Assembly: GCA_037200905.1 (NCBI GenBank)
Contig: JBBCGN010000003.1
Coordinates: 1 to 41,283, forward strand
Reading direction: 5' to 3'
DNA: 41,283 bases
From: a bacterium
GTDB taxonomy: Bacteria; Patescibacteriota; Minisyncoccia; Phycocordibacterales; UBA9973
Shown: one piece after another, positions 22,065-41,085 of the stretch
Position numbering within the stretch: the first letter of the stretch is position 1
How the letters are laid out: each line of letters starts with the position of its first letter
Program-made: the position numbers and the translations under genes
Notes under the pieces: model-generated
Told to the model about the DNA's origin: nothing
The model's input: the letters and a program-made list of their open reading frames with translations, nothing else
The model's database searches: none

Positions 22065-22298
22065 TTACAACCCTAAGGCTTGAGCTATCTTCGGCTTGTC
22101 GAAGCCGACGGTGATGTCGCCGTCGATGATGATAACAGGCACGCCCATCTGGCCGCTCTTGTCTACCATCTCCTTTCTGCGATCAAGATCAGCGGCTACG
22201 TCGTAGTCGGTGAAAGCTATATTGTTCTCGGTGAAATAATCCTTTGCCGCATGGCAGAAGTGACAGGTCGGTGTCGAATATATTGATACGTTATGCAT
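22065..22298 (-). CDS. Glutaredoxin-like protein (NrdH/YruB type)
   Basis: IYSTPTCHFC, SGQMGVPVI, VGFD. Confidence 0.92.
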   Translation of the reverse strand: MHNVSIYSTPTCHFCHAAKDYFTENNIAFTDYDVAADLDRRKEMVDKSGQMGVPVIIIDGDITVGFDKPKIAQALGL

Positions 22299-22403
22299 GT
22301 GATTTTGCAAATCGCTTCGCGCAAGTCCATTTGGCGCGAAGCAATCGGTTACCTATTTCTAATAGTTCTATTATATCATAGTCTCTAAGAAAACTTATAA
22401 TTA

Positions 22404-22431
22404 TTGACAATAAAAAATTGTGTGCTAGTAT
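22404..22431 (+). promoter_or_regulatory. Sigma70 promoter TTGACA-16-TAGTAT (extended TG)
   Basis: Read directly upstream of ORF 22471. Confidence 0.6.
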
Positions 22432-22470
22432 TTATTGGAAAATCTTTGTCATTAATTAAAACTTAAAACA

Positions 22471-22953
22471 ATGATGACCATATTGATGTATCCCTACTAT
22501 TTCTACCAATACTGGAGAAATACGCTGTATATCCTGCGAAACAGGAAAGCAATAAATTACCTCCTGAACAGGAAATTTCAAATGGACAGATTCCGATATT
22601 CAGTTCTCTGGATACGAAGCCTGAATACCATACCTGCACAGGTTGGTGATTATCGACTCAAAGAACAAATTCCGATACTTTATGGAGCGAAGGAAACGAA
22701 GAGTATTGCCTTTATCCTTTCAGTTTTCTTCTGCGGAATCGCTTCCTTTATTCCAATCCTGAACAGGTCGTTGATGAGAAAAGCATATGCAATCGATGCG
22801 GAATATGATACATATTTCCCTGATTTTTATAATGCTTTCTACTTCACTGCCAAAGAGTACGCTGCAGGCAAAGAAAAACAAATTAGAATGAGTAATTATC
22901 CATTTGAAACGGGTCTCCGCCCAAAGCAGATAGAACTTTGGGGGATAGTGTAA
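22471..22953 (+). CDS. AT-rich hypothetical membrane protein
   Basis: 160-aa ORF with one hydrophobic segment, its own promoter and terminator. Confidence 0.65.
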   Translation: MMTILMYPYYFYQYWRNTLYILRNRKAINYLLNRKFQMDRFRYSVLWIRSLNTIPAQVGDYRLKEQIPILYGAKETKSIAFILSVFFCGIASFIPILNRSLMRKAYAIDAEYDTYFPDFYNAFYFTAKEYAAGKEKQIRMSNYPFETGLRPKQIELWGIV

Positions 22954-22988
22954 AGTATTCAAACGCCCTTAAGCAGTATTTATCTTTC

Positions 22989-23022
22989 AAACCTTCCGAT
23001 CCTTTCGGGAGGTTTTTATTTT
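22989..23022 (+). terminator. Intrinsic terminator
   Basis: AAACCTTCCGA/TCGGGAGGTTT stem followed by TTATTTT. Confidence 0.7.
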
Positions 23023-23023
23023 G

Positions 23024-23094
23024 TGCGGGATGCGGGAATCGAACCCGCGTCTCAACCTTGGGAAGGTCGCATCATGCCACTAAACTAATCCCGC
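23024..23094 (-). tRNA. tRNA-Gly(CCC)
   Basis: Acceptor GCGGGAT/ATCCCGC, anticodon stem CGACC/GGTTG with loop TT-CCC-AA, T arm GCGGG-TTCGATT-CCCGC; CCA not encoded. Confidence 0.92.
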
Positions 23095-23690: not shown

Positions 23691-25492
23691 TCAATTGTCT
23701 CCGCTCCGCATCATCTTCAGAAACACGTCCTGAGGGATGTTTACGCGTCCGCGCTCTTTCATCTTCTTCTTGCCCTTCTTCTGCTTCTCGCGGAGCTTCA
23801 TCTTGCGCGTGATATCGCCGCCATACATGTGCTGGGTAACGTCTTTCTTCATGCCGGAAACGCTGCGAGAAGAAATAATCCTCCCCAAGGCCTTGCCTTG
23901 GATCTTCAAAGAAAACATCTGCCGCGGCAGTATCTTGTGCAGGCGTTCTACTGCTTCTTCGGCTTCTTCCTCCACGCGTTTCGTGGAAACGACGCGGGAA
24001 AAGGCCGGCACCACTTCGTCGGCTACCAGCACGTCGAGCCTGGTGACGTTCGCGTCGCGCATGCCTTCGATCTCGTACGAGATGGATGCATAGCCGGAAG
24101 AGACGCTTTTCAAGTCATCGAAGAAATTGCGCATCAGTTCGCGGAGCGGCATCTTGAGCGATATGGCCGAGCGGCTGTCGCCGAAGTTCTCCGTCACGCC
24201 GATTTCCGCCTCGTGATCGAATAAGAGCTGCATGATGCCGCCGATATATTCCGCAGGACTGATGATCTTCACCGCTACCCATGGCTCTGAAACGCGCTCG
24301 ATATTGGCATCCTCGGGGAAGTAATACGGCGAATAGACTTTCTCTATCTTGCCCTGCTTGTTGGTGACTTCATATGGCGTGGTAATGACGATGCTCGAGA
24401 TACAAATTCGCGCTTCAAGCGCTCGGTGATAATCTCGAGGTGGAGCATGCCGAGAAAGCCCGCAGCGGAAGCCGCGGCCGAGCGAGCCGCTCGATTCTTC
24501 TTCATATGAAAAAGCCGAATCGGACAAGCTTGAGCTTGCCGAGCGCAGCCTTCAGTTCGGTTGAAATCATCCGCATCTTCCGGGAAAACGGAAGCCCATA
24601 CTACAGGCAGGGCCCGCATGTAGCCCGGCAGGGCCGGCAGCGGGATTCTTCGACATGGTGATAGTGTCTCCGACGGATGCGATGCCCGGCTTCTTGATGC
24701 CGGTGACGATATAGCCCGTGTCTCCGGAGGAATGCGCGTCGCGCGGGGTCTCTTCGGGGAGAAAAGGTGCCGACTTCGAGGGCGATGAATTTTTCCCCGG
24801 ATATGGCGAACATCAGGTTCTCCCCCTTGCCTACTTGTCCGTCGAGGATGCGCACGAAGACGATCACTCCGCGATGATTTGAATATTTGAAATCGAACAC
24901 GAGGGCACGCAAGGCATTGGCATCGTGGTACGTTTCCGAGGGCGGCGGTACCCGTTTGATGACTTCCGCCAGAAGATTTTCCACGCCCTCGCCCGTCCTG
25001 CCCGACACTGTCAGTATGTCTTCCCTGTCGCAATCGAGCAGTTTCACTACTTCGTCTTTGATATCTTCCACCCGCGCCAGCGGCGAATCGATCTTGGAAA
25101 GCACAGGGATGATGGTAAGGCCTCCCTCGCGCGCCATAGCGAGCGTGGTGAGGGTCTGGGCCTGCACGCCTTGCGTGGAGTCGACGAGCAATATCGAGCC
25201 TTCTACGGCCTTCAGGGCGCGGGAAACCTCATATGAGAAATCTATGTGGCCCGGGGTGTCGATCAGGTTCAAGACGTATTTTTCGCCCCCCAGAGAGTGC
25301 TCCATGCGCACCGGCTGCATTTTGATCGTGATGCCGCGTTCGCGTTCGAGCTCCATAGAATCGAGCACTTGGGTCACGCATTTTGCGCTCGGGAATAGTG
25401 TGAGTAATCTCGAGCATCCTGTCAGCCAGAGTGCTTTTGCCGTGGTCGATATGGGCGATTATGCTGAAATTGCGGATATGCTTCAGGTCCAT
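23691..25492 (-). CDS. lepA: Elongation factor 4 (LepA); indels
   Basis: [59 protein letters not shown]. Confidence 0.95.
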
Positions 25493-25522
25493 ACGACCAT
25501 AGTAGCAGAAATGGGCTTAATG

Positions 25523-27202
25523 CTAAAGCCCTTCTTCGGCCGGAGCGGCGATCTTGGTGCGCCAGAATTTTGAGCGCATGGTCTTTACGAGGTCCTGCAA
25601 TTCCTGATTCTTCAGGAGCCAGAGTACCAGAATGCCGGCGGCGATGCCGAAAATGCCTGAGATGAATCCTTGCAGGAACACTCCCCAGAATGTCGTCGTA
25701 CCGAAAATCGGCGAGAGGATATTGAGGCCGAGATACGCCACGCCGCCGATGAAGAACGAAGCACCGAGGCTCTGAAAAAATGTCTTGCCGAGGAAATATT
25801 CTCCCGGCATGAAATCGCGCTTCACCGCTACCCAGTGCAGGATGAAGTTGAGTATGGTGCCGACGGAATACGCGAGCGGCAGCATCAGGATTTCCGTCCC
25901 CGGAATATCGTTCACCTTGAACAACGACTCGATGAAATAGCGGAAATACGTGAAGTGCTCGAAGCAGTGCAAAAAGGTATAGGAAAGGATGATAATCAGC
26001 ACGGAACACAGGAAATTCACTATCAGCGGCTTCTTGGTATTGCCGTTGGCATAAAATGCGCGGGACAGAAGCGCCGTCATACCCTGGGCCAAGACTGAGA
26101 TGGAGAATACTGCCAGAGATGCAGCCACGAGCCTGGTATTGTCCCATGAGAAAGAGCCAGAGCCGAGTATGACGCGCACGATCTGGGCGCGGAGGACGAT
26201 GAAGAGGAACGTCACCGGCAGGGACCAGAAGACGATGGCCTTCCCTGCCGATTTGAGATTGGCCTTGAACTCGTCCATCTTGCCGAGGGCCACGGCCCGG
26301 GCCAGCACCGGGAACGTCGCCACGGCGTACGAGATGCCGATAATGTTGAGCGGCACCGATTGCAGGTTGAAAGAAAAATTGAAGACGGAAATAGAACCGG
26401 CTTTCAAGTACGAGGCAAAAGCGATGATGCAGATAAGCGCGATGGAGTTGAATGAGAGTCCGAGAGTGCGCGGCAAAGATATCAATACGGCGCGCTTGAT
26501 ATCTTTGAAATTTATCTTCATCGAGAATCTCGGCACGAAGCCCGAGATCGAGGATCCGATGGCCTGCAGGACGAAGTGCATGAATGCTCCGAGCGCGACG
26601 CCCGCGGCCAAGCCGCTGATGCCGAACAAGGGATACAGGAATATCACGCCGATGATGATGCCGAAGTTGTAGAAGATCGGCGAGAGCGAATACAGGAAAA
26701 ATTTCTTGAAGAGCTGGGTGACGGTGCCGAAGAGGCTCGAGAGGCCCATGAATATCGGCGACAGGAGCATGATGCGCGAGAGCTGGAAGACTTTCGCCTG
26801 CATTTCCGGCGAGAAGCCCGGCGCGATAAAGGATGCGAGATGCGGCATGAGGAAGTACGCGATCACCGCCACGAGCACCATCACGGCGAAGAATACCGTG
26901 AAGACGTCATTGAGAAATTTCCGTGCCGCGGGCGTGACCGCGCCGCCGTCCATCTTCTCCACGATGAACGGTATCAGCACGGTGATGGACGCGAGCGATG
27001 CGATGGAGATGAATATCAGGTCTGGGATGCGGAAAGCGGCGTAATAGGCATCGAGCATGGGCGACGGCCCGATGAAGTGCGCGATGGCGCGGTCGCGGAA
27101 CAGGGCGAGGACCTGGGAAAGGAGCGTGAAGATTCCCAAAAGGAGCGCAGCCTGATTGATGTTGCCGTATTCCTTGCTGAAAATCCTGAATATCTTCTCC
27201 AT
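25523..27202 (-). CDS. murJ: Lipid II flippase MurJ (MviN)
   Basis: DAYYAAFRIPDLI, multiple TMs, RAFYANGNTKKP. Confidence 0.9.
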   Translation of the reverse strand: MEKIFRIFSKEYGNINQAALLLGIFTLLSQVLALFRDRAIAHFIGPSPMLDAYYAAFRIPDLIFISIASLASITVLIPFIVEKMDGGAVTPAARKFLNDVFTVFFAVMVLVAVIAYFLMPHLASFIAPGFSPEMQAKVFQLSRIMLLSPIFMGLSSLFGTVTQLFKKFFLYSLSPIFYNFGIIIGVIFLYPLFGISGLAAGVALGAFMHFVLQAIGSSISGFVPRFSMKINFKDIKRAVLISLPRTLGLSFNSIALICIIAFASYLKAGSISVFNFSFNLQSVPLNIIGISYAVATFPVLARAVALGKMDEFKANLKSAGKAIVFWSLPVTFLFIVLRAQIVRVILGSGSFSWDNTRLVAASLAVFSISVLAQGMTALLSRAFYANGNTKKPLIVNFLCSVLIIILSYTFLHCFEHFTYFRYFIESLFKVNDIPGTEILMLPLAYSVGTILNFILHWVAVKRDFMPGEYFLGKTFFQSLGASFFIGGVAYLGLNILSPIFGTTTFWGVFLQGFISGIFGIAAGILVLWLLKNQELQDLVKTMRSKFWRTKIAAPAEEGL

Positions 27203-29380: not shown

Positions 29381-32224
29381 CTAAATAACGATGTTGATAA
29401 GTCTATTTTTGACATAGACTACGCGCTGTGACGTCTTGCCTTCCATATATTTGGCAATATTCGCATTTTCGAGCGCCGCTTTCTTGATATGTTCTTCGGA
29501 TTCGTCCACGGCGGCGCTCATAGTGCCGCGCAGCTTGCCGTTTATCTGGAGGGCGATCTCTACCGTTTCGTCCTTTATCAGATTCTCGTCGAATGCCGGC
29601 CACTCGGCGAGATGGATCGACTCCGTTTCCCCGAGCTCGTGCCAGAGCTCTTCGGCGATATGCGGCGCGAACGGCGCGAGCAGTCGGAGCAGCGTCTTGT
29701 ATTCGTCTTTCTGCACAGCATCAGCTTTCTCCCACTCGTTCAAAAGTATCATCATCTGCGCGATGGAAGTATTAAATTTGTATTCCTCCATATCGGCTGA
29801 CATTTTCTTGATAGTCTTATGGAGCGTCGGCGTCACCTTCCCGTTTTGTTCTTTTGCGATCTTCGCCGAGAGTTTCCAGACGCGCTCAAGGAATCTGCGC
29901 ACGCCGACGACGCCATTCGGATCCCACGGATAGTTCACCGTCACGCCGTACGGACCCATGAATGAAAGATAGAGGCGTACCGTATCGGCACCGAGAGTTT
30001 CCACAATCTCATCGGGATTGATGACATTGCCTTTCGATTTGCTCATCTTATTGCCATCAGGACCAAGAATCAGTCCGCGATTGCGGCGCACGGTGTACGC
30101 TTCATCGTCTTTTACCAAGCCGAGGTCATACAGCGCCTTCGTCCAGAATCGCGAATACAGGACATGCATCGTAGTGTGCTCTGCGCCGCCCATATACAGA
30201 TTTATTGGCATCCACGCATCCATGCGCTCTTTTGCAGCGAATTCCTTGTCATTTCTGTTATCAAGATAACGATAGAAGTACCACGACGAATCTACGAACG
30301 CATCCATCGTCTCAACCTCCGGCTTCCAGCCTGCGCCAAAAATTTTCTCCGTACGCGCAAAAAGTTCCTTGCTGCGCGCCAGTGGCGCAGTACCGTCCGG
30401 AGTGTGATCGACATCGGTCGGCAAGAGCCACGGCAAATGTTCCTCTGGTATCGGATGCGCTTTGCCTTCGGGGTCATAGACTATCGGAATGGGACAGCCC
30501 CAATAGCGCTGGCGAGAAATTCCCCAATCCCGGAGTCTGTATGTGTTCACTAATTTTCCGCCGACGGCTTCGGTTATTTTCTTTATAGCTTCTTTTGAGT
30601 CAAGACCGTCGAATTCTCCCGAACTTGCAAGTATACCTTTTTCTGTACTTGCAAATTCCATGAATGCTCTATTCCAGATAAGCTTCATGTCTTCTACCCA
30701 TGACAAATATTGTTCCATCTCTTCCCTTGGAATCCAGACCACATCATGAATACTTTTTTCTTTTTCAGAAGTTTCCTGCTGGTCGCCATTTTGCAATTCG
30801 AAAAGTACAGGATGAAAATGTGCCCAACGATTTTCTTTTTTTACAACATGATAAAACTGAGCATGAACGATTCCAGGAATCTCTTTTACAAACTTCGCAG
30901 ATGTATAGCCAGTTTCCTCGACGATTTCACGCATCGCTGCTGTTTTAGCATCTTCCCCTTCTTCTATTCCCCCGATGACAAATCCGCGCCAGTCTGTCTG
31001 CTTCCATTTGAGACACAAATATTTATCTTCAGACCAATGCTTGATGATAGCTACGGCTGCATTTCGCTTTACAAAAGGCAGGCCGTCCTGCACATTACGT
31101 ACGCCGTCCTTCTCACCTGTCTTTCTAAAAAGTGGTTCTACTACTTCCCGTATCGGCAAATTAAACCTCTTAGCAAACTCAAAATCTCTTTCATCGTGCG
31201 CCGGCACGGCCATGATGGCGCCCGTGCCATAGCCCGCGAGCACGTAATCCGCGATCCAGATCGGGATTTCCTCTTTGTTCGCAGGGTTGATGGCTTTTAT
31301 GCCTTTGAGTTCCACGCCGGTCTTTTCTTTCGACTGCTGGCGATCAAGCTCGAGCTTCTTCTTTGTGGCATCGATATATGCTTCGACATCTTCCTTATTC
31401 TCGATATTCGAGAGAAGCTCCTGCACAAGCGCATGTTCCGGCGCGAGCACGAGATATGTCACGCCGAAAATAGTATCGGCTCGAGTGGTGAATACTCTTA
31501 TTTTTTTATCTGAACCGACAAGCCCAAACTCAAGCTCGCTGCCCTCGCTCCGGCCGATCCAGTTTCTTTGCGCCGCCTTGATCTCTTCCGGCCAGTCGAG
31601 CTTTTCAAGATCATCGACGAGCCTGTCGGCATACTTCGTGATGCGCAGCATCCACTGCTCCTGATCGCGCTGGATGACTTCAGTGCCGCAGCGCTCGCAT
31701 TTGCCGTCGATGACCTGCTCGTTCGCAAGTATGGTCTGATCCTTCGGGCACCAGTTCACTTTCGTGCTGGCGCGGTATACGAGATCGTTCGCCAGGAATT
31801 TATTGAACATCCACTGCGTCCATTTGTAGTATTCCGGCGCGCAGGAGACTATTTCCCTGTCCCAGTCGAACATGGCGCCCATGGAGCGGAGCTGCAGGCG
31901 CATCTTGTCCATCTGTTCGTATGTCCAGACTTTCGGATCGGCGCCCTGCTTGATGGCGGCATTCTCCGCCGGCAGGCCGAATGCGTCGAAGCCCATCGGG
32001 TAGAGTGAGTTATACCCCTGCATGCGCTTGAAACGCGCGAAAATATCAGGGATGGAAAACGCATACCAATGTCCCGTGTGCAGATTGCCGGAAGGATAAC
32101 TGAACTCCACAAGCGTGAAATAATTTTCTTTTCCTGGAACCTTATCCTCTACTTTGTAGATTTTCTTATCTTCCCACTCTTTCTGCCATTTCTTTTCAAT
32201 TTTTTTGTGGTCGTATTGTTTCAT
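29381..32224 (-). CDS. leuS: Leucine--tRNA ligase with internal Nudix domain
   Basis: HTGH (HIGH motif), NWIGRSEG, FTTRADT, GTGAIMAVPAHDERD, DWGISRQRYWG, KMSKS; Nudix box at 30905-30973. Confidence 0.96.
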   Translation of the reverse strand: MKQYDHKKIEKKWQKEWEDKKIYKVEDKVPGKENYFTLVEFSYPSGNLHTGHWYAFSIPDIFARFKRMQGYNSLYPMGFDAFGLPAENAAIKQGADPKVWTYEQMDKMRLQLRSMGAMFDWDREIVSCAPEYYKWTQWMFNKFLANDLVYRASTKVNWCPKDQTILANEQVIDGKCERCGTEVIQRDQEQWMLRITKYADRLVDDLEKLDWPEEIKAAQRNWIGRSEGSELEFGLVGSDKKIRVFTTRADTIFGVTYLVLAPEHALVQELLSNIENKEDVEAYIDATKKKLELDRQQSKEKTGVELKGIKAINPANKEEIPIWIADYVLAGYGTGAIMAVPAHDERDFEFAKRFNLPIREVVEPLFRKTGEKDGVRNVQDGLPFVKRNAAVAIIKHWSEDKYLCLKWKQTDWRGFVIGGIEEGEDAKTAAMREIVEETGYTSAKFVKEIPGIVHAQFYHVVKKENRWAHFHPVLFELQNGDQQETSEKEKSIHDVVWIPREEMEQYLSWVEDMKLIWNRAFMEFASTEKGILASSGEFDGLDSKEAIKKITEAVGGKLVNTYRLRDWGISRQRYWGCPIPIVYDPEGKAHPIPEEHLPWLLPTDVDHTPDGTAPLARSKELFARTEKIFGAGWKPEVETMDAFVDSSWYFYRYLDNRNDKEFAAKERMDAWMPINLYMGGAEHTTMHVLYSRFWTKALYDLGLVKDDEAYTVRRNRGLILGPDGNKMSKSKGNVINPDEIVETLGADTVRLYLSFMGPYGVTVNYPWDPNGVVGVRRFLERVWKLSAKIAKEQNGKVTPTLHKTIKKMSADMEEYKFNTSIAQMMILLNEWEKADAVQKDEYKTLLRLLAPFAPHIAEELWHELGETESIHLAEWPAFDENLIKDETVEIALQINGKLRGTMSAAVDESEEHIKKAALENANIAKYMEGKTSQRVVYVKNRLINIVI

Positions 32225-32245: not shown

Positions 32246-33322
32246 TTACTGCACCATCATCTTCGCTGCCGGCTCCGTTGCCGGCTTCGGATATGGAGGA
32301 TAGAGGTCCTTGTCGATCGTGCGAGTGTAGCACGTACGACCAGCCTGGTGATCCCATGATTCGTTTACTCCGGAGCCTCCGGGAGCAGCCACCGGTCGGG
32401 CAGAAACAGAGGTATCCATGAATGGTGTTATGCCGCCATAACCCTGATTCTCCTGCCAGCCTTGCGGCATGACTGCGGAGTATGTGGCACAGAGCTCGAA
32501 GCTCGGATCAGTCTTCGCATCTCCTGCTGCCTTCACGCTATATTCATAGGTATTGCCTTTCTCGAATTCCGGATCGACAGGGATGGCGAAGCCGGAAAGC
32601 GGATTGGAAAGATCGGACAGAGACGCGGGCAGTTTCTCCTTCTGCTGCCAGTAGCTGATGACCTGCCACTGGATGCTCTGCAAGTCCTGCACGCGGCGGT
32701 CATCCAGGCGCCAAACGCGCTGCTGCCCGGGCGTACCCATGACATGGAAGCTCCAGATGATGAGAGCGATGACGAGGATGGAAGACTTGATAGCGGACCA
32801 GGCGCCGACGTTGAAGACGAATATCTTTTCCTTACCCTGGAGTTCGAGGATGTAGTAGATGCCGACGATGAGCGCCACGATCAGCACCGCCACGACTTTC
32901 AGGATGAATCGCGTGGTGATCTCGCCGGAGACGAAGTAGCGCACGAGAGTGACGAGGTCGACAGCCACGACGATGGCGGAAAGGAAGAGGATGATGTACA
33001 TGACCCACTTGCGGATGATTGTGTCGATAGAGCCCATGCGGCGCGAGTGCTTCTTCCAGAAATACGAGACGATGAGGAATATCGGGAAGAAGATGATCAG
33101 CGTGGCGAGAGCCATGCGGATGGAGTCGTAATTGTACGAATTATAGCCGTATTGATAAGTGGCATTGAGAGCGTCCGGAAACTGCTTTTCGAGCGTGCCA
33201 AAAACGAGATTCAAGAATGAGACGACCGAAGTGATCAAGGAGATCAGAACGCCTAGTGATAAGAAGAAGAAACCGAGGCTGAACTTAGCTTTGTTTTGCT
33301 GTGCATTTAGTTGTGTTTGCAT
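32246..33322 (-). CDS. DUF5671-type membrane protein
   Basis: Several TMs, IRMALATLIIFFP, IRKWVMY, GEITTRFILK, RLDDRRVQDL, FELCA; TGATATAGT 7 nt upstream. Confidence 0.75.
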   Translation of the reverse strand: MQTQLNAQQNKAKFSLGFFFLSLGVLISLITSVVSFLNLVFGTLEKQFPDALNATYQYGYNSYNYDSIRMALATLIIFFPIFLIVSYFWKKHSRRMGSIDTIIRKWVMYIILFLSAIVVAVDLVTLVRYFVSGEITTRFILKVVAVLIVALIVGIYYILELQGKEKIFVFNVGAWSAIKSSILVIALIIWSFHVMGTPGQQRVWRLDDRRVQDLQSIQWQVISYWQQKEKLPASLSDLSNPLSGFAIPVDPEFEKGNTYEYSVKAAGDAKTDPSFELCATYSAVMPQGWQENQGYGGITPFMDTSVSARPVAAPGGSGVNESWDHQAGRTCYTRTIDKDLYPPYPKPATEPAAKMMVQ

Positions 33323-33368
33323 ATCGCTTACTATATCATAAGAGCATAGCAAAATAAAATTGACTACG

Positions 33369-33731
33369 ATGAACAACGGATTCGAAAATTTCTCCAAAAA
33401 ACTGACCAAATGGATCGGCTCGCCGCAGTCGCTCGTCGTGCACACCATCTTCTTCATCGCCATGTTCTCATTGCGGCTCTTCGGCATAGCGGCCGCTGAC
33501 ATCCTGCTCGTACTCACCACTATCGTCTCGCTCGAGGCCATCTATATGTCCATCTTCATCCAGATGACGGTGAACAAGCACGCCGAAGAGCTCGAAGAAG
33601 TTTCCGAAGATGTCGACGAGATACAGAAGGATGTCGACGAGATCCAGGAAGACGTGGAAGAAATCCAGAAAGACGTGGATGAGATTCAAGAAGACGTCGA
33701 GGACATCCAGGAAGAAGTGAAAGAGGAGTAA
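33369..33731 (+). CDS. DUF1003-like membrane protein with acidic heptad-repeat tail
   Basis: TKWIGSPQSLVVH, LTTIVSLEAIYMSIFIQM, (EDVDEIQ)n. Confidence 0.8.
   Translation: MNNGFENFSKKLTKWIGSPQSLVVHTIFFIAMFSLRLFGIAAADILLVLTTIVSLEAIYMSIFIQMTVNKHAEELEEVSEDVDEIQKDVDEIQEDVEEIQKDVDEIQEDVEDIQEEVKEE
33606..33710 (+). repeat. Five 21-nt coding tandem repeats
   Basis: GAAGATGTCGACGAGATACAG-like units encoding [EK]DV[DE][ED]IQ. Confidence 0.85.
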
Positions 33732-33759
33732 AAAAAACCGGCCTTTGAAAGGGCCGGTC
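33730..33759 (-). terminator. Intrinsic terminator (minus strand)
   Basis: ACCGGCCTT/AGGGCCGGT stem with an 8-T run on the minus strand. Confidence 0.75.
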
Positions 33760-33841
33760 TAAAGAAATAAGCGGTCTAAAGAAATAATGAACCGTATGTT
33801 CGGCGAGGAGCATACGTGAAATAGTACCTGGAGAATATACG

Positions 33842-34747
33842 CTAATCCTTGCTGTTTGTCCACACAGCGGTATGCGCGAGCGAGAGCAGGCGGCCATTCG
33901 ACTTTTCCCTGACGCACATCTCCCCCTGCTTCGTTTCCCCGTCGAAATCTTTCATAGTGTCCGCCAGGGCATAGCCGAGCGCGAGTGCGGATGAATCCGT
34001 AGCATACGAGGTCAATATCACGAAGAGCGGCTTGCTGCTCAAGACTTTCTGCACCAGGGCCAAAAGCTGCGGCAGCTTTTCTTCGATCTTCCAGATCTCT
34101 CCTTTCGGCCCGCGGCCGAATTTCGGCGGATCCATGATGACGGCATCGTATGCATTGCCTCTTTTCACTTCCCGTTCCAAGAATTTCAATACATCGTCTT
34201 CGAGCACGCGCATGGGCAATGCTTCCAGCCCTGAAAGTTTCTGATTCTCTTTGGCCCAGCTGAGGGTCTGTTTCGAAGCATCGACATGCGTCACTTCGGC
34301 GCCGGCGGCGAGCGCCGACAGGCTCGCGAGGCCCGTGTAGCCGAACAGGTTCAGAAACTTCACCGGCTTCTTCGCGGCACCGATCTTTTCAGAAATGAAA
34401 TCCCAGTGACTCGATTGTTCCGGGAAAAATCCGAGATGGCGGAACGGCGTGGGCGACGCCAGGAATTTCAAACCCCCGTATGCCATGTGCCATTTCTTCT
34501 CCACCGCATCTTTTAGCTTCCAGCCGCCTTTGGCGCCGGTCTTGGTGCTCCAGAATTTCCCGTCGGCGGCATCCCACTCCTTTTTCGAGAGCGTCTTCGG
34601 CCACGCCGCTTCCTCGTACGGCCGCACGAAGGCGTACGGGCCGAAGCGCTCGAGCTTCTCGCCCTCGCCCGTGTCGAGCACCTCGTAATCTTGCCAGCCG
34701 TCGGCGGCAAACAGAGATATATCCGCCCCCCGTTCCCTTTTTTCCAT
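33842..34747 (-). CDS. Class I SAM-dependent methyltransferase, RlmI/RlmK-like
   Basis: FRHLGFFPEQ, LNLFGYTG, THVDAS, IMDPPKFGRG. Confidence 0.88.
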   Translation of the reverse strand: MEKRERGADISLFAADGWQDYEVLDTGEGEKLERFGPYAFVRPYEEAAWPKTLSKKEWDAADGKFWSTKTGAKGGWKLKDAVEKKWHMAYGGLKFLASPTPFRHLGFFPEQSSHWDFISEKIGAAKKPVKFLNLFGYTGLASLSALAAGAEVTHVDASKQTLSWAKENQKLSGLEALPMRVLEDDVLKFLEREVKRGNAYDAVIMDPPKFGRGPKGEIWKIEEKLPQLLALVQKVLSSKPLFVILTSYATDSSALALGYALADTMKDFDGETKQGEMCVREKSNGRLLSLAHTAVWTNSKD

Positions 34748-34782
34748 AGCTTTCATCATAGCATGAAAAGCAAAACTGCGCT

Positions 34783-34811
34783 TTGACCAAATCAGATATA
34801 TGTGTTAATAT
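34783..34811 (+). promoter_or_regulatory. Sigma70 promoter TTGACC-17-TAATAT
   Basis: Read directly; TG upstream of the -10. Confidence 0.55.
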
Positions 34812-34832
34812 AGGCACAAATATTTCTTTGAT

Positions 34833-35705
34833 ATGAGAATGAGAAAACTGAAGATTACCAGATCGATCACAAACCATGATTGCCCGTCCACGGAGAAATA
34901 CCTCTCCGACATCAGCAAGATTCCCAGAGTGACTCCCGACGACGAGACCAGACTGACACAGCTCATACGGAAAGGAGACAAGAAGGCTCTGGATACGCTC
35001 GTACAAGCAAACCTGCGCTTCGTAGTATCTGTCGCAAAGCGATACCAGCATCAAGGCATGACGTTCGGAGACCTCATCAACGAAGGCAACATCGGCCTCA
35101 TCACGGCCGCCCAGCGCTTTGATGAGACACGCGGCTTCAAATTCATCTCGTTCGCCGTGTGGTGGATACGTCAGAGTATCCTGCAAGCCCTCGCAGAGGG
35201 ATCAAGAATGGTCCGTCTGCCGCACAACAGGATACTCGTCCACAACAAGGCACGGCGCTTGGCGAACAAGTTCGAGCAGGACAACGAGAGAGATCCTTCC
35301 GACGAAGAATTAGCAGAACTCACGGGCATGACCGAAATCGAAATCACCAGGTATTATCAAGGCGATGCCTTCCATACTTCTCTCGATTCGCCGATGAGTG
35401 CCGATTCCGATAATGAGACGACCATGGGCGACATGCTCGCGGACGAAGGCAGCGCCGATGACAGGATCATGCGCAAATCCCTGCAGGCGGAAGTCCGCGA
35501 GCTCTTAAAGTCGTGGACGCCCAAAGACAGGGATGTCATCATCGCTTATTTCAGGCTCGACGGCGAGTACGGGCTCGATGTCGAAGATGTCATGAAAAAG
35601 TATGGCCTGACGAGGGAAGGGGTGCAGCGGATCAAGGAGCGGCTGGTACGCAAGAGGTTTCGAAAGCCGCAATACCGACAGAAGCTGAAACCTTATCTCG
35701 GGTAA
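34833..35705 (+). CDS. RpoD/SigA-family sigma-70 factor, Bacteroidota-type (no region 1.1), copy 1
   Basis: MRKLKITRSITN, ANLRFVVSVAK, DLINEGNIGL, FDETRGFKFISFAVWWIRQSILQAL, C-terminal YLG. Confidence 0.92.
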   Translation: MRMRKLKITRSITNHDCPSTEKYLSDISKIPRVTPDDETRLTQLIRKGDKKALDTLVQANLRFVVSVAKRYQHQGMTFGDLINEGNIGLITAAQRFDETRGFKFISFAVWWIRQSILQALAEGSRMVRLPHNRILVHNKARRLANKFEQDNERDPSDEELAELTGMTEIEITRYYQGDAFHTSLDSPMSADSDNETTMGDMLADEGSADDRIMRKSLQAEVRELLKSWTPKDRDVIIAYFRLDGEYGLDVEDVMKKYGLTREGVQRIKERLVRKRFRKPQYRQKLKPYLG

Positions 35706-35721
35706 CCGGTTTGTGAATCAC

Positions 35722-35761
35722 AAAATCCGAAAATGCAGCGCATTTATCGGATTTTTTTATT
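35722..35761 (+). terminator. Intrinsic terminator
   Basis: AAAATCCGA-AAATGC/GCATTT-ATCGGATTTT followed by a T-run. Confidence 0.75.
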
Positions 35762-35774
35762 GCACGGATGAGCT

Positions 35775-35803
35775 TTGACAAAAGACCCTCCCTTCTGTAC
35801 GCT
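35775..35803 (+). promoter_or_regulatory. Sigma70 promoter TTGACA-17-TACGCT
   Basis: Read directly. Confidence 0.5.
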
Positions 35804-35843
35804 TATGGAAACAACCATTCTTTCATATCTAAAACTCATACCT

Positions 35844-36713
35844 ATGGCAATGCGAGAATTGAAAATCAGCAAATCCATCACCAACCGCGATAGCCGCAGC
35901 ACGGAAAAATTCTTTCAGGAAATGGCGAAAGAAACGCTCCTGACGCCGGACGAAGAAGTAGTCATCGCCCAGCGCATCAAGATGGGAGACCAAAAGGCTC
36001 TCGACAGGCTCATCCGGGCAAACTTGCGTTTCGTGGTGTCCGTAGCGAAGCAGTACCAGAATCAGGGACTGGGACTCAACGACCTCATCAACGAGGGCAA
36101 TGTGGGCCTCATAGTCGCGGCGCACCGCTTTGACGAGACAAAGGGATTCAAATTCATCTCATATGCCGTCTGGTGGATCCGCCAGTCTATCCTGAAAGCC
36201 CTTGCGGAAGATGCGCGCATAGTTCAGCTTCCGCTGAACAAGGTCGCCCTCTCGAACGATTCGGCAAAAGCCCATCTGAAATTTTTGCAGGAGAACGAGC
36301 GCGACCCGACTTCGGAAGAACTGGCCGAACTCATCGGCGTAGAGCTAAGGGATATCCAGGATGCCATGTCGACCAGTATCAGGCACAAGTCGCTCGACGA
36401 GCCGGTGCACGAGGGCGAAGACCTCACGCTCGGCGACAACCTGGAGAACGGCGAACGCTCCGATACGGAACTCGACCATCATGAATCGCTCCGCATCGAG
36501 GTACAGATGGCGTTCAGGCGCCTCACGCCGAGGCAGGCTGAAGTCCTCGCTGATTTCTTCGGCATCAATGAAAAGAGAGAGGCGTTCAGCCTCGAGGCCA
36601 TCGCGGGAAAATACGGCTTGGGCAGAGAACGGGTGCGGCAGATAAAGGAACGGGCGATCGAAAAACTTCGAAAATCGAGAGCCGGCCAAAGGCTCGCGGA
36701 ATATCTGGGCTGA
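35844..36713 (+). CDS. RpoD/SigA-family sigma-70 factor, Bacteroidota-type (no region 1.1), copy 2
   Basis: MRELKISKSITNRDS, ANLRFVVSVAKQYQNQGL, FDETKGFKFISYAVWWIRQSIL, RERVRQIKE, C-terminal YLG. Confidence 0.93.
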   Translation: MAMRELKISKSITNRDSRSTEKFFQEMAKETLLTPDEEVVIAQRIKMGDQKALDRLIRANLRFVVSVAKQYQNQGLGLNDLINEGNVGLIVAAHRFDETKGFKFISYAVWWIRQSILKALAEDARIVQLPLNKVALSNDSAKAHLKFLQENERDPTSEELAELIGVELRDIQDAMSTSIRHKSLDEPVHEGEDLTLGDNLENGERSDTELDHHESLRIEVQMAFRRLTPRQAEVLADFFGINEKREAFSLEAIAGKYGLGRERVRQIKERAIEKLRKSRAGQRLAEYLG

Positions 36714-36725
36714 ACCGCCTGCTCG

Positions 36726-36760
36726 AATCCGGAATGTGAAAACATTCCGGATTTTTTATT
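36726..36760 (+). terminator. Intrinsic terminator
   Basis: Perfect 12-bp stem AATCCGGAATGT/ACATTCCGGATT, GAAA loop, T-run. Confidence 0.85.
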
Positions 36761-36789
36761 TTGACATTATTAAAAATTTATGATATTAT
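36761..36789 (+). promoter_or_regulatory. Sigma70 promoter TTGACA-17-TATTAT (extended TG)
   Basis: Directly abuts the upstream terminator. Confidence 0.7.
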
Positions 36790-36822
36790 CATAAAAATTT
36801 TGTAACTTAAAAACCGAAAAAT

Positions 36823-38610
36823 ATGGGAAAACTCTTGGCTGTTTACTGGAAACACGCGAAAGGCATACAACGTTTTGCCTATTACACTATCTTCTTGCAT
36901 CTCTGCGCGTATACTCTGCAAGAGATTCTCCGGCCGTATGCGTTCAAGCGTATCATCGACGCCATCACCGGCACGAACGGCGCGGAACGGATACTCTACC
37001 TCGTGCTCACTCTATGCGCGGTACAGGTCGTAGCGCAAGTTTGCTTTCGTATAGGAGAACTCTATACCTGCAAATTCGAATTGCGCCATATGAAAATATT
37101 GCGTAATGCCGTATTGACGCACCTTCTGCGGCACTCCAGCGCATTCTTTGCAGGCAGGCAGACGGGCGCCATCGTTACGAAACAAAAGCGTTTCGTCTCA
37201 TCAGCCGAAGCACTGTTCGACCTGGTTGTTGATCAGTATGTGATCCTCGTCGTGCAGGTCGTTGGCATTGTTGCCGTCCTATGCTTCATCTCCCTGCCGA
37301 TCGCATTCGGGATGCTGGTGTGGATGCTGCTGTACTTCGGCTATATCGCGCTTTTTCTCAAGAAACGCATGAGGCTCGACACGGAAGCCGCCGAACAGGA
37401 CTCGAGAGTGACGGGAATGTTCGCCGATATCATCGGCAATATTTCAATCGTCAAGATGTTCGGCACTAGCCGCCGCGAAAGAAAACGCTTTGAGGAAGCC
37501 ACTGTACGGCAGCATAATGCCATCCAGCTATCCTGGAATTTTGCCATCAGGCAGAGTCTGATTCATGGCTTTCTTTCCATCCTCCTGACTGCCGGCGGCA
37601 TTTCTGCAGGGGTCTTCTTGTGGACCAAGAACATGCTCACGCCGGGAGAACTGGTATTGATCAGCATGTACACCGCGCAGTTCTCGAACTGCTTGGGAAA
37701 CTTCAGCAAGAGCGTGCGGAAATACATCCAGGCTGTCGCCGATGCCCAAGAGATGCTCGAGATCATCGAGCAGACTCCGGATATTCTTGACGCTCCCGGC
37801 GCCATCGCTGACCCGAGACTAGAACCTCGACAAGCATCAGTAGCCTTTCACAATGTCACATTCGGCTACATTCCAGGCACTACCGTTTTCAAAGATTTTT
37901 CTTTGCATATTCCTGCAAGGCAGAAAATCGCCGTCGTCGGTTCGTCCGGTGCAGGAAAAACTACGTTGATACAAATGCTATTGCGCAACGTAGACATTCA
38001 AAACGGATCGATCAACATCGGGCACTACAACATTGCGAAAGATGTGACCCAGGACGGATTGAAATCCCTGATCTCGTGCGTATCGCAGAACATCGACATG
38101 TTCAACCGCAATATCAAGAGCAATATTGGTTACGGCAAGGAAGAAGCAACTGAAGAAGAAATCACTGATGCCGCAAAACGCGCCCGCATCCACGGCTTCA
38201 TCGAAACCCTGGATAAGGGCTATCTGACAAAAGTCGGAGAACGCGGCATAAAGCTCTCGGGCGGACAGCGACAGCGCGTCGCCATCGCGAGAGCCCTGGT
38301 GCACAATGCGCCTATCCTGATCTTTGATGAAGCCACTTCATCGCTCGACAACATAACGGAAAAAGAAATCCAATCCATACTCGAGAACGGATTGAAAGAC
38401 AAGACCGTTATCGTCATCGCGCACCGGCTGTCCACCATAAAAAACTGCGACAGGATACTGGTACTCGACGATGGCAAGATCATCCAGGACGGCAGTCATG
38501 AAACATTGCTGAAAGATACAAACGGCATGTATTACAAGATGCAGCATTCGCACGAAATAGCGGTGCAGATGCATGTGCAGGAAGAGATTCCAGCAGAGTC
38601 AAAAAATTAA
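36823..38610 (+). CDS. ABC exporter, fused permease/ATPase (ABCB/MsbA-like)
   Basis: N-terminal TMD, Walker A GSSGAGKT, LSGGQRQR, IFDEATSSLD, IAHRLST. Confidence 0.93.
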   Translation: MGKLLAVYWKHAKGIQRFAYYTIFLHLCAYTLQEILRPYAFKRIIDAITGTNGAERILYLVLTLCAVQVVAQVCFRIGELYTCKFELRHMKILRNAVLTHLLRHSSAFFAGRQTGAIVTKQKRFVSSAEALFDLVVDQYVILVVQVVGIVAVLCFISLPIAFGMLVWMLLYFGYIALFLKKRMRLDTEAAEQDSRVTGMFADIIGNISIVKMFGTSRRERKRFEEATVRQHNAIQLSWNFAIRQSLIHGFLSILLTAGGISAGVFLWTKNMLTPGELVLISMYTAQFSNCLGNFSKSVRKYIQAVADAQEMLEIIEQTPDILDAPGAIADPRLEPRQASVAFHNVTFGYIPGTTVFKDFSLHIPARQKIAVVGSSGAGKTTLIQMLLRNVDIQNGSINIGHYNIAKDVTQDGLKSLISCVSQNIDMFNRNIKSNIGYGKEEATEEEITDAAKRARIHGFIETLDKGYLTKVGERGIKLSGGQRQRVAIARALVHNAPILIFDEATSSLDNITEKEIQSILENGLKDKTVIVIAHRLSTIKNCDRILVLDDGKIIQDGSHETLLKDTNGMYYKMQHSHEIAVQMHVQEEIPAESKN

Positions 38611-38617
38611 AAAAATC

Positions 38618-38656
38618 AAAACCGGCCCACTCTCTATAGTGGCCGGTTTTTCTATT
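38618..38656 (+). terminator. Intrinsic terminator
   Basis: AAAACCGGCC/GGCCGGTTTT stem followed by Ts. Confidence 0.75.
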
Positions 38657-38686
38657 TCAGCCTTACTTATATAGGTCAAAATTCTA

Positions 38687-38715
38687 TTGACTTTTTTATT
38701 AAAAGGTGATATAAT
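38687..38715 (+). promoter_or_regulatory. Sigma70 promoter TTGACT-17-TATAAT (extended TG)
   Basis: Near-consensus elements with ideal spacing. Confidence 0.75.
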
Positions 38716-38836
38716 ATGCACATAGGTCCCTGCTCCTCGATGCAGGTATAGCGAGAATGAAGAAACTCGCAGAACGCCCATAACGGGAATTTAAAATAAT
38801 TTCGGCATCGCACGTCGCGGTACAAATCTTTGAAAA

Positions 38837-39469
38837 ATGAAAAAGTTATCAACTGTCAACAAGATTGGTCAGGCAGCATTGACTCACCTCTTCAGACCAC
38901 ACAGCACTGTAAACGCTATGGAACAAAGCGTGGTATCGGTATCTTTTCCGAAAGAAGAGTTCGATTTAGAAGCTGATCTGAAAGCCAATCGCCACCTCAG
39001 CAACAAGTTTGGTATTAACTCAAACTATGGTCGCAGCTATCAGGTGTGGGGCATTGAAATTGGCCGTCGTTTCCTCGCTAAGGTTTTCGATGGCGATACT
39101 GCACTTGATGCAGTCGCCAGGCTAAAATGCTTGTTACGGATGGGTATAGACGTACCTTCTCACTTCATCGTTCGTGAATGGTCTTCAAATGATATTTCAG
39201 GAGACAACGAGAGATACACGGTATATCGTCTTTCTCAAAAACAGGAAGCTGATGTAAAGAGGTATGTCGATATCAGAGCACGTGTCTATGAAAATGTAAC
39301 GGTTGAACCTATGCCTTCATATTTAAACCATAGAGAAGGACATAATTTCTTTTCCGAAATCCAATATGGCGGATGGGAACTGAGCGGTTCTGGCGTTACC
39401 GAAGAAGAAGCCAAGGAAGACGTAATCCGAAGATGGTGTAAGGTTGTACAACCTGTTCAATCAGCGTAA
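38837..39469 (+). CDS. Hypothetical protein
   Basis: 210-aa ORF bounded by its own promoter and terminator. Confidence 0.7.
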   Translation: MKKLSTVNKIGQAALTHLFRPHSTVNAMEQSVVSVSFPKEEFDLEADLKANRHLSNKFGINSNYGRSYQVWGIEIGRRFLAKVFDGDTALDAVARLKCLLRMGIDVPSHFIVREWSSNDISGDNERYTVYRLSQKQEADVKRYVDIRARVYENVTVEPMPSYLNHREGHNFFSEIQYGGWELSGSGVTEEEAKEDVIRRWCKVVQPVQSA

Positions 39470-39477
39470 TGAATTAT

Positions 39478-39516
39478 TAGCCCGTATCTCAAAAGGATAC
39501 GGGCTATTTTATTTTT
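39478..39516 (+). terminator. Intrinsic terminator
   Basis: TAGCCCGTATC/GATACGGGCTA stem followed by TTTTATTTTT. Confidence 0.8.
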
Positions 39517-40517
39517 CTAGACCAAAAATTCTATGACATCGCCGTCTTGGACGATATATTCTTTGCCTTCCGTGCGTATCCAGCCGCGCTCGCGAGCTGC
39601 GCCGCGAGAGCCGGCTTCGATGAGCTTGTCCCAAGCTATCACTTCCGCACGGATAAATTTATTTTTGAAATCTTCATGAATGGCGCGGCCAGCCTCAGGG
39701 GCTGTACTGCCGATAGCTACAGTCCAGGCGCGGGTCTCGTCCTCGCCTGTTGTGAAATATGTCTCGAGTGAGAGCAGTTTGTAGCTTTCTTTTATCAGGT
39801 CATCGAGCCCGGTCTCGAACACCGGATCGATCTTTACATAGGCACCGGGAATTTTTGAAATAATTCCGTCGACGACATTTTCATTCGCAGCCGAAACATT
39901 TAAACCATAAAGGACTGGTTTCGCAGACAATAGATGCATGCCTTTGACGATTTTCTTTTCTTCTTCATCAAGTGCTACGGTGCTTGCCATTCTAGAATCC
40001 GCCAGTGCCGCTTCTATTCTTCTCAACACAGCATCTTCTTTAATTGCTTCCTTGTCGCCGCGCTTTACATCGCGCACGAGATTGCCTAATCGTTTGGTGA
40101 CGGTTTCCAAATCCGCCAGGATGAGTTCGAGATTGATGACTTCGATATCCTGCAGAGGATCGACTTTATTCGCCACATGGATGACATCCTTGTCCTCGAA
40201 GGTGCGCACCATGTGCAGGATAGCGTCCACTTCGCGGATATTCGAGAGAAACTTGTTGCCGAGGCCTTCGCCTTTCGAAGCCCCGGCCACGAGTCCCGCG
40301 ATGTCCACGAATTCGATGACTGCGGGAATGGTTTTCTTCGACTTAGAGAATTCGGAAAGTTTCTGCACGCGCTCGTCCGGCACCGGCACGATGCCCACTG
40401 ACGGATCGATGGTGCAGAACGGGTAATTTTCCGCCGGCACGCCTTTTTGGTAAGCGCGTTGAAGAGCGTGGACTTCCCCACGTTCGGCAGGCCCACGATT
40501 CCGATAGACAGCTGCAT
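39517..40517 (-). CDS. ychF: Redox-regulated ribosome-binding ATPase YchF (one indel near 40445)
   Basis: GIVGLPNVGKSTLFNAL in one frame; ENYPFCTIDP, DIAGLVAGASKGEGLGNKFL, EGKEYIVQDGD in the next. Confidence 0.95.
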
Positions 40518-40575
40518 AGAACACAAATATATCAGAATCGGGCCGAAAAGTCATATCGGCGCTTCTTTTTCCGGC

Positions 40576-41085
40576 CTATTGGTTGTAGAGCAGGCGGAGC
40601 TTTTCCAGGCCGCGGTGGAGCTGCACCGAAATGGTGTTCTTCGAGGCGCCGGTGGCGCTCGAGATCTCTTCAAGCGACAGGTCCTGCACGTATTTCATGC
40701 GCATGACCTTCTTGCATTTCTCGGGCAGGCGCGAGACGAGGCCGATGGCTTTCTTGCTGTCGAGCAGGTTGTATACTTCGGCAGGATCCCCGGCGGCCGG
40801 CTCAAAACCCTGTTCGAGCAGGGTATCGAGCGATGCCGACTTGTGCTTGCGGTACTGGTCGATGATGAGGTGGTTGAGGATGTGGTACAGGAAGGCTTTG
40901 ATCTTATAAATCTTTCCGCCCTTGACGAGGTAGTTCCACGTCTTGGTAAACGTGTCCTGGACGAGGTCGATGCTCGTCTCGATGCTGTTCACCTTGAAGA
41001 AGGCGTACGAGCGCAGGCCTTTCTCGTGCTCGCCGAATATCGTCTTGAACTCTTCTTCCAGCTTGTGTTGATTTTTTTTGGTCAT
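40576..41085 (-). CDS. ECF-subfamily RNA polymerase sigma factor
   Basis: DLVQDTFTKTW, KAFLYHILNHLIID, MKYVQDLSLEEIS, ISVQLHRGLEKLR. Confidence 0.92.
   Translation of the reverse strand: MTKKNQHKLEEEFKTIFGEHEKGLRSYAFFKVNSIETSIDLVQDTFTKTWNYLVKGGKIYKIKAFLYHILNHLIIDQYRKHKSASLDTLLEQGFEPAAGDPAEVYNLLDSKKAIGLVSRLPEKCKKVMRMKYVQDLSLEEISSATGASKNTISVQLHRGLEKLRLLYNQ

Follow-up and report, generated by a model that had tools for sequence, protein, structure and literature searches.

The window analyzed here, a stretch of 41,283 nucleotides that makes up the whole of contig C3 of a Patescibacterial genome assembly (GenBank GCA_037200905.1; hereafter, G000), carries two neighboring genes, sig1 and sig2, that encode short sigma-70 factors of the type found in Bacteroidota. 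Phylogenetic trees, the footprint of an insertion, and the rarity of such genes in the phylum give good support for their horizontal acquisition from the Bacteroidota-type sigma family. We consider it fairly probable that the pair are old, domesticated accessory sigma factors that act on the cell's own core RNA polymerase and that a long housekeeping RpoD is encoded in DNA missing from the assembly.

Two intact short sigma factors of the Bacteroidota type

Starts assigned by homology, at 34839 and 35850, agree with the database gene calls (288 and 287 amino acids), and the two products are 49% identical over 292 alignment columns (E = 1e-92). Pfam sigma-70 regions 1.2, 2, and 3 were found in both proteins. 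Region 4 was matched in sig2 (E = 8e-12); in sig1, no Pfam match to region 4 was listed at E ≤ 0.001, though the region aligns. Pfam region 1.2 was placed from residue 43 onward in the 312-residue reading of sig2 (about residue 18 counted from MRELKI) and from residue 19 onward in sig1, so that no region 1.1 lies ahead of it in sig1; the Pfam scan listed no match to region 1.1 (PF03979) in either protein. Both frames are intact over about 288 codons and keep all of the conserved core-binding and DNA-melting motifs. The open reading frames, the Pfam matches, and the alignment bear out a preliminary description of this DNA, which had reported two paralogues of about 290 amino acids without region 1.1 and had quoted the motifs seen here: the N terminus MR[KE]LKI[TS][RK]SITN, the internal ANLRFVVSVAK and FKFIS[FY]AVWWIRQSIL, and the C terminus YLG.

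When the pair was aligned with sigma factors of Chitinophagaceae and Bacteroidales and with long RpoDs, the Bacteroidota-type signature in regions 2.4/3.0 and at the termini was present in both proteins. The short copies carry ...AVWWIRQSIL[QK]AL...LP.N..., and the long RpoDs keep ...YATWWIRQ[AS]ITRA...RTIR[IV]PVHMVETI... and ...VTRERIRQIEAK... The positions in regions 2.4/3.0 that differ between short and long sigma factors are those that we take to recognize the -12 base and the TG of an extended -10 element, as in Escherichia coli. Region 4.2 is conventional in sig2 (LGRERVRQIKERAIEKLR) and diverged in sig1 (LTREGVQRIKERLVRKRF); with the helix that reads the -35 element altered in sig1, the two copies probably differ in specificity. 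Among the NCBIfam models, the best scores included those to rpoS_proteo (TIGR02394), at 199.8 and 216.8 bits against a cutoff of 378.7; the cyanobacterial RpoD/SigA subfamily was also among the best models and likewise fell below its cutoff. The generic superfamily model TIGR02937 was the only one to pass. With scores this far under the cutoffs, sig1 and sig2 are therefore not members of RpoS or of other named equivalog families.

Support for acquisition from a Bacteroidota-type sigma family

Thirty relatives of G000 were searched (18 from the same genus and 12 from the same order). Each has a sigma factor that is only 33 to 38% identical to the window copies and is encoded by a frame mostly of 381 to 454 codons, with a lysine-rich N terminus and a segment resembling region 1.1 (matched by PF03979 in relative G832). 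Compared with the 73 to 84% identity of these long RpoDs to one another, and given the different clade and the different locus, sig1 and sig2 are not their orthologs. In a sample of 401 genomes drawn evenly over the phylum, 388 had a match; besides G000, only G177 has short copies (44% and 53% identical, in 307-residue frames), and all other matches were 32 to 40% identical. (The sample includes G184, flagged as unpublished, which contributes one ordinary row of the long type.) Among 101 sampled Bacteroidota genomes, by comparison, 100 hold the short type at 48 to 61% identity, with one match in 83 genomes, two in 13, and three in 4; all five named Bacteroidota genomes have two or three copies.

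The best database matches of sig1 are mostly proteins of 285 amino acids that are 53 to 58% identical to it. This set, called type A here, has named members in Taibaiella, Thermoflavifilum, Flavipsychrobacter, and Edaphocola (Chitinophagaceae-like), which the database names RpoD/SigA. The best matches of sig2 form a separate set, type B, of mostly unnamed proteins of 288 to 291 amino acids that are 59 to 62% identical, with named members among the Chitinophagaceae sigma factors of Terrimonas and Sediminibacterium. With 62% as the highest identity to any database protein, there is no known Bacteroidota source.

A FastTree overview (150 rows) and two careful trees made with IQ-TREE (76 and 75 rows) were built. 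The rows were subsampled (18, 10, and 8 of the 56 long RpoDs; 70 and 14 of the 107 full-length representative clusters) and included 30 Bacteroidota loci; identical or near-identical Bacteroidota rows were removed before the 75-row run. The short family was fully split from the long Patescibacteria RpoDs in every tree (FastTree, 100; IQ-TREE, 100/100 twice). sig1 was nested in the type A clade in both IQ-TREE runs (99/100 and 98/96), within Bacteroidota sequences. sig2 stood beside type A without resolution in the first run and was sister to type A in the second (93/94); it did not group with type B in the IQ-TREE trees. A clade of sig1 plus sig2 was neither shown nor rejected (p-AU = 0.264), and one acquisition followed by local duplication is as possible as two acquisitions.

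Among 400 other genomes of the order, 7 (about 2%), one in each of 7 genera, also carry short sigma factors. In the tree, the ten short sigma factors from other Patescibacteria are dispersed, and those of the carriers in the order fall mostly in an unresolved part. A constraint that joined the 12 short sigmas of Patescibacteria in a single clade was rejected (p-AU = 0.001); the 12-member group was set by taxonomy, and the constraint test was run after the tree was seen. Thus, the short sigmas of the order share no single origin. Native context was verified for G000, G832, and G625. The short copy of G832, which is of the same family as G000, sits at a different locus, the orthologs of its neighbors lying at C1:138698-156654 in G000. 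Some carriers may be binning errors: the G667 copy, on a 3.2-kb locus, groups with a Bacteroidales sequence (99/82).

Several side observations concern the other carriers and the Bacteroidota themselves. P0053 and P0109, both labeled "Candidatus Pacebacteria bacterium," nest in the type A clade on a short branch, which points to misbinning or recent transfer. In G625 (locus L194, contig C12), the two short sigma genes (7875-8738 and 11072-11995) share one strand and lie about 2.3 kb apart, with a 247-residue open reading frame and an MgsA-type ATPase gene between them and GreA, PBP2, and tRNA synthetase genes around them. Tandem same-strand pairs were seen in 6 of 80 named Bacteroidota loci, which were found with sig1-specific peptide patterns and are mostly Bacteroidales paralogues 44 to 51% identical, not the closest relatives. 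These sigma-A-like pairs (L068, L070, L090, L094, L097, and L106) are from Bacteroidales, Muribaculaceae, and Bacteroides, and the second copies form clades of their own.

The presence of short sigmas in seven genera of one order, most of them in the unresolved part of the tree, could also mean that an old Patescibacteria paralogue was inherited vertically and lost in most lineages. We regard this as very unlikely: the single clade of 12 was rejected, sig1 falls inside a Bacteroidota clade in both careful runs, the insertion sites differ between G000 and G832 of the same family, and the closest relatives have an uninterrupted junction at the site occupied in G000. The trees, which do not group the pair with the long Patescibacteria RpoDs, the copy number survey, in which short sigmas are rare, and the insertion footprint described below uphold the earlier proposal of horizontal acquisition.

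An insertion within a Patescibacterial contig

The sigma genes form part of a block of about 4.7 kb, with an ABC exporter gene and orf210, that lies between the genes for a SAM-dependent methyltransferase (MTase) and the GTPase YchF and on the strand opposite to both (Table 1). Relatives G009 and G015 share the gene order g23691 - g24601 - ABC' - MurJ - (TPR) - LeuRS - DUF5671 - cc123 - MTase - YchF, and the gene order of contig C3 agrees with that of relatives. The gap between MTase and ychF is 40 to 76 nucleotides in G009 and G015 and about 577 nucleotides in G017, where the two genes are neighbors, compared with the 4.7 kb of G000; the flanking orthologs of G000 and G009/G015 are 52 to 77% identical. 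At the borders of the block, only short chance matches were found, with no mobile-element repeats.

TABLE 1 Features of the sigma gene pair, the inserted block, and its flanks in the window
Feature	Position	Strand	Description
Left flank, MTase	33842-34759	-	SAM-dependent methyltransferase (Pfam); orthologs 62-68% identical in G009, G015, G017
Inserted block	34760-39516	+	sig1, sig2, ABC exporter, orf210; between two - strand genes; ~4.7 kb
sig1 promoter-like site	34783-34811	+	TTGACC-17-TAATAT, TG one base upstream of -10; 9/12 matches (consensus scan)
sig1 ORF	34833-35705	+	290 aa
sig1, likely start 34839 (MRKLKI)	34839-35705	+	288 aa; alternative ATG 34833
Hairpin and T-run after sig1	35716-35768	+	Terminator-like, running into TTTTTTTATT
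sig2 ORF	35775-36713	+	312 aa from TTG
Possible sig2 promoter	35775-35803	+	TTGACA-17-TACGCT, read by eye
sig2, likely start 35850 (MRELKI)	35850-36713	+	287 aa; alternative ATG 35844, TTG 35775
Hairpin after sig2	36725-36762	+	Terminator-like; 13-pair stem, loop 4, then T-run
ABC exporter promoter-like site	36761-36789	+	TTGACA-17-TATTAT with TG; 11/12 matches
ABC exporter	36823-38610	+	Pfam ABC_membrane, ABC_tran
orf210	38837-39469	+	No Pfam family; GC3 0.398 vs 0.698 ± 0.111
Right flank, ychF GTPase	39517-40554	-	YchF (Pfam); orthologs 54-69% identical in G009, G015, G017, G026

Contig C3 is genuinely Patescibacterial. Its tetranucleotide profile correlates with those of the other G000 contigs at 0.97 to 0.99, and its leucyl-tRNA synthetase (LeuRS) is 44 to 69% identical to that of 29 of the 30 relatives (G005 gave no match). 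The contig also encodes MurJ, a DUF5671 protein, and YchF (Pfam). Together with the size of the assembly (676,658 bp in 6 contigs, 72.47% complete), the LeuRS, the DUF5671 gene, and the gene order confirm the earlier description of the genome as resembling those of the candidate phyla radiation (CPR).

The low read depth of G000, about 4×, leaves room for the reading that a Bacteroidota fragment was misassembled or misbinned into it, and other bins may be so affected (P0053 and P0109 in the type A clade; G667 with Bacteroidales). For the window, this is extremely improbable. Runs X1 to X4, all of one sample labeled wood decay metagenome, were compared with window positions 32500 to 38500. A contig of 3,910 nucleotides, built from the same reads (and hence no independent data) by a different assembler, covers 33741 to 37650 with 0 differences, crosses both junctions, and shows no visible chimeric joint over that range; its depth of 3.6 is even with that of its neighbors (3.7 and 4.3). 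Native syntenic genes flank the block on both sides within one contig, composition and the GC content of third codon positions (GC3) fit the genome, and the ceiling of 62% identity in the database also argues against such an artifact. The possibility of misassembly raised in the preliminary description thus found no support.

Codon usage of the pair is host-like (GC3 of 0.685 for sig1 and 0.705 for sig2, against a genome mean of 0.698 ± 0.111). The hairpin after sig1 corresponds to inverted repeat I9, with arms at 35716-35733 and 35744-35761 that are 83% complementary, and was not listed by the consensus scan; nor was the candidate promoter of sig2, whose -10 element matches TATAAT at 3 of 6 positions only. 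Given the host-like codon usage and the native-style promoter-like and terminator-like sites, the acquisition appears to be old and domesticated.

The other two genes of the block differ in character. Named full-length matches of the ABC exporter, in Yanofskybacteria, Paceibacterota, and Patescibacteria, are 37 to 40% identical, and the best unnamed ones are 48 to 59% identical; by sequence it looks native to the phylum, an ordinary Patescibacteria-like half-transporter. It is 31 to 37% identical to the relatives' ABC gene lying between g24601 and MurJ. Unlike loci L180 (G009) and L184 (G015), G000 has no ABC exporter between g24601 and MurJ (25377-25523), and the only one nearby is that of the block. 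Given its odd composition, orf210 may have come from a foreign source more recently. In 112 Bacteroidota and G177 loci, neither the ABC exporter nor orf210 was found linked to short sigmas.

Accessory or primary sigma factors

Seven genes of G000 match sigma-70 region 2, namely, sig1, sig2, and five short genes resembling extracytoplasmic function (ECF) sigma factors. The latter lie at window positions 3698-4228 (+) and 40576-41085 (-) and at C1:251423-251620, C4:7059-7280, and C4:7860-8075; the two on C4 are in tandem, and the one on C1 adjoins a gene for a DUF5667 protein. No long RpoD was found in the assembly by hidden Markov model (HMM), protein, or tblastn searches. When the long RpoDs of relatives were used in tblastn, the matches listed, those of 4 of the 29 queries, consisted of the two short copies and a weak match of 48 to 62 amino acids on C5; the best-match table for the frames of all 29 long-rpoD loci agrees.

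This lack of a long RpoD is what would be expected if the pair had displaced the ancestral gene and one copy now served as the housekeeping sigma. In keeping with replacement, G625, which has two neighboring short copies, also shows no long RpoD, and TTGAC-type promoter-like sites precede both window genes. We nevertheless judge replacement to be quite unlikely. G000 also has no matches to DnaG (PF01807, PF08275), ribosomal protein S2 (PF00318), EF-Ts (PF00889), or the N-terminal domain of RNA polymerase beta-prime (PF04997). In G832, the long-rpoD block reads rpsB - tsf - two open reading frames - glycosyltransferase - thioredoxin-like - rpoD - dnaG, and dnaG adjoins long rpoD in 27 of the 29 loci of relatives; G625, too, is without DnaG. 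Because DnaG, S2, EF-Ts, and beta-prime are essential and cannot all be absent, the dnaG-rpoD region must be unassembled; depth is only about 4× and completeness 72%. Further, 6 of the 7 other carriers in the order keep a long RpoD that is 73 to 84% identical to one of a relative (on the same contig as the short copy in G832), and G177 keeps one as well. Finally, the promoters of the genome are of the TGnTATAAT type (see below), and the short copies do not have the canonical residues of regions 2.4/3.0, whose roles we take to be those described for E. coli. An assembly without the whole dnaG-rpoD neighborhood does not support a primary role, and sig1 and sig2 are probably not the primary sigma. 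The term "primary" in the preliminary description thus holds for the type of sequence and not for the role in G000.

Linkage to truB was also tried as a test for loss of rpoD and was set aside as weak evidence, since same-genus relatives lack the truB-rpoD linkage; in 4 relatives from the order, rpoD is followed downstream by truB, and in G000 msrB lies upstream of truB. At C1:244724-246395 (L147 3724-5395, -), a 389-residue open reading frame couples a TruB N-terminal domain with the beginning of a UvrD helicase domain, followed by further UvrD and PD-(D/E)XK pieces in separate open reading frames. A gene fusion, or a helicase-nuclease gene broken by a frameshift, could account for this arrangement.

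Promoters of the genome and function of the pair

Promoter motifs were counted in 320 upstream regions of G000 (Table 2). The dominant type is TTGAC-N17-TGnTATAAT, so that the TTGACA/TATAAT-type promoters reported earlier hold both locally and genome-wide. According to a review (PMC12632263), Bacteroides promoters are made up of -33/-7 elements that include TANNTTTGY, promoters of E. coli are inactive there, and the Bacteroides sigma has no region 1.1; nothing further on this point was drawn from PMC12641261. Bacteroidota-style promoters were not enriched in the upstream regions of G000, a result that says nothing on what the proteins can bind. The 14 matches to TANNTTTG are at the level of chance, and only one has TTTG in the inspected upstream window. 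Thus, the suggestion that the pair transcribes captured host-style genes gained no support, with no TAnnTTTG enrichment and a single full -33/-7 match. Nor did the analysis bring support for the suggestion that the donor was the host of this organism.

TABLE 2 Promoter motif counts in upstream regions of G000
Motif	Sense	Antisense	Shuffled mean
TGNTATAAT (TGnTATAAT)	21	5	1.2
TATAAT	67	33	26
TTGACA	35	24	13.6
TTGAC-N16-19-TANNNT	43	22	3.1
TANNTTTG (TAnnTTTG type)	14	18	15.6
TTTG-N17-22-TANNTTTG (full -33/-7)	1	0	0.5

The pair could be neutral passengers or slowly decaying relics without present function. That no regulon or target motif was found in G000 fits this idea, as do the long end branches and the lack of a listed Pfam region 4 match for sig1, and the database matches include no close relative with the pair in which selection could be tested. 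Even so, we think it unlikely. Both frames have stayed open with every conserved motif, codon usage is host-like, and the genes have their own promoter-like and terminator-like sites in a genome that is small; small genomes seldom keep useless DNA. Contigs of two RNA libraries from the same sample match both sigma genes (34945-35175, 35553-35663, and 35893-36062) with 0 differences, a weak hint that sig1 and sig2 are transcribed, with DNA carryover possible.

The preliminary description had also proposed that the proteins are delivered as effectors or decoys that reprogram the RNA polymerase of a Bacteroidota host, a proposal that the host-phylum type of the sigmas and the ABC exporter gene directly downstream might seem to favor. 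It is highly improbable on present evidence. The N termini have the MRxLKI start that is usual in cytoplasmic sigmas of Bacteroidota, the proteins are full-length ordinary sigma factors with native-type promoters and terminators, and similar genes stand among housekeeping genes in other Patescibacteria. The ABC gene has a promoter of its own after a terminator, encodes an ordinary half-transporter of the Patescibacteria type, and, like orf210, is unlinked to short sigmas in the 112 other loci. Among the island genes scanned with Pfam, there are no secretion-system partner genes.

We return to the reading that the pair are domesticated accessory sigma factors. They entered the lineage by horizontal transfer, with the Chitinophagaceae-like lineage of type A accessory paralogues as the nearest source, and now sit in the block inserted between MTase and ychF. 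On this reading, sig1 and sig2 would bind the cell's own core RNA polymerase in the manner of group 2 sigmas and redirect it to a small set of promoters. The altered region 4.2 of sig1 (LTREGVQRIKERLVRKRF, compared with LGRERVRQIKERAIEKLR in sig2) may give it a different -35 preference, and the housekeeping long RpoD would lie in the unassembled part of the genome.

Several points weigh against this reading. The presence of a long RpoD in G000 has to be inferred, because none was seen, and G625 (66% complete), the only other assembly with two neighboring short sigmas, shows none either. Binding to the Patescibacterial core enzyme is a prediction, and the beta-prime gene lies outside the assembly. 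No target promoters for sig1 or sig2 were found in the upstream regions of G000, and those regions derive from a rough gene call made for this analysis (628 genes, 74% coding). The end branches of sig1 and sig2 are long (0.9 to 1.1 changes per column), which makes their exact placement in the tree unsure; the highest identities of sig2 are to type B (61%), yet the tree sets it beside type A.

Significance

The preliminary description regarded the pair as a candidate for an undescribed system. What we find instead is a new member of an established protein family, in a host where it was not expected. The transfer of primary-like sigma genes between phyla is real and well supported. No paper on Bacteroidota-type sigmas in Patescibacteria was found in the literature searched, with supplements and subscription journals outside its scope. 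Genes for sigma factors rank with those least expected to pass between phyla, because a sigma must fit the polymerase and the promoters of the recipient. If the pair works with a Patescibacterial core, it provides a natural test of sigma-core compatibility and of how a minimal genome gains a second promoter specificity. The case also shows that replacement should not be read into a gene missing from a bin that is 72% complete.

A bolder idea, which we put forward tentatively and regard as rather doubtful, is that the order has repeatedly captured Bacteroidota sigmas, that the pair adds a second promoter code with a small regulon, and that such captures mark a physical association, as of host and symbiont, between the two groups. 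If so, the regulon might consist of genes that came from Bacteroidota partners or that are expressed during contact with them. The donor phylum could also hint at the partners of these uncultured cells.

Other features of the genome

The LeuRS gene of the window (29381-32224, -) encodes 947 amino acids, with a NUDIX domain (residues 387 to 507) inserted after the editing domain. LeuRS frames in relatives range from about 800 to 1173 amino acids, and matches are often broken at the NUDIX insertion point. Against a GC content of about 0.53, the window has low-GC stretches at 10001-11000 (0.355) and 21001-23000 (0.37 to 0.39); the second is flanked by genes for tRNA-Arg (21076-21148, +) and tRNA-Gly (23023-23094, -) and may be an integrated element. 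A 16-nucleotide exact direct repeat, CGGTCTAAAGAAATAA, is present in 2 copies one base apart at 33755-33787, downstream of a small coiled-coil gene. G000 has 33 tRNAs covering 18 of the 20 amino acids; tRNA-His and tRNA-Phe are missing, a further sign that the assembly is incomplete.

Comparison with known systems

Among the closest known counterparts of the pair is the Bacteroidota sigma-A of the Bacteroides fragilis type, which likewise has about 285 to 290 amino acids, no region 1.1, an MRxLKI start, and a YLG end and which shares the signature FKFISYAVWWIRQSILQAL...RLP.N. The pair differs in that it resides in a Patescibacterium with canonical promoters, where it is probably not the housekeeping sigma, and in that it sits on long branches, with region 4.2 changed in sig1. 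Within the Bacteroidota family, sig1 is most like the type A paralogue, inside whose clade it falls and with which it shares an ...AYF.LDGE.G... segment before region 4.2. Genomes with type A hold two or three short sigmas, so that type A is an extra copy there too. Unlike sig1, however, the type A copy is not in tandem in either of the two genomes checked (G429 and G430), and its identity to sig1 stays below 60%.

The long RpoD of Patescibacteria belongs to the same superfamily and has the same conserved core-binding and -10-melting motifs. In contrast to the pair, it is mostly 380 to 450 amino acids long (up to 553 in the phylum sample) and is linked to dnaG. It is well conserved across the order, has low identity to the window copies, and is split from them at 100/100 in the trees. 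Group 2 sigmas, such as proteobacterial RpoS and the extra RpoD-like factors of cyanobacteria and actinobacteria, resemble the pair in having regions 1.2 to 4 without a long N-terminal part and in coexisting with a housekeeping sigma, as the pair presumably does. sig1 and sig2 are set apart from them by NCBIfam scores far below the cutoffs and by their origin in a transfer from another phylum.

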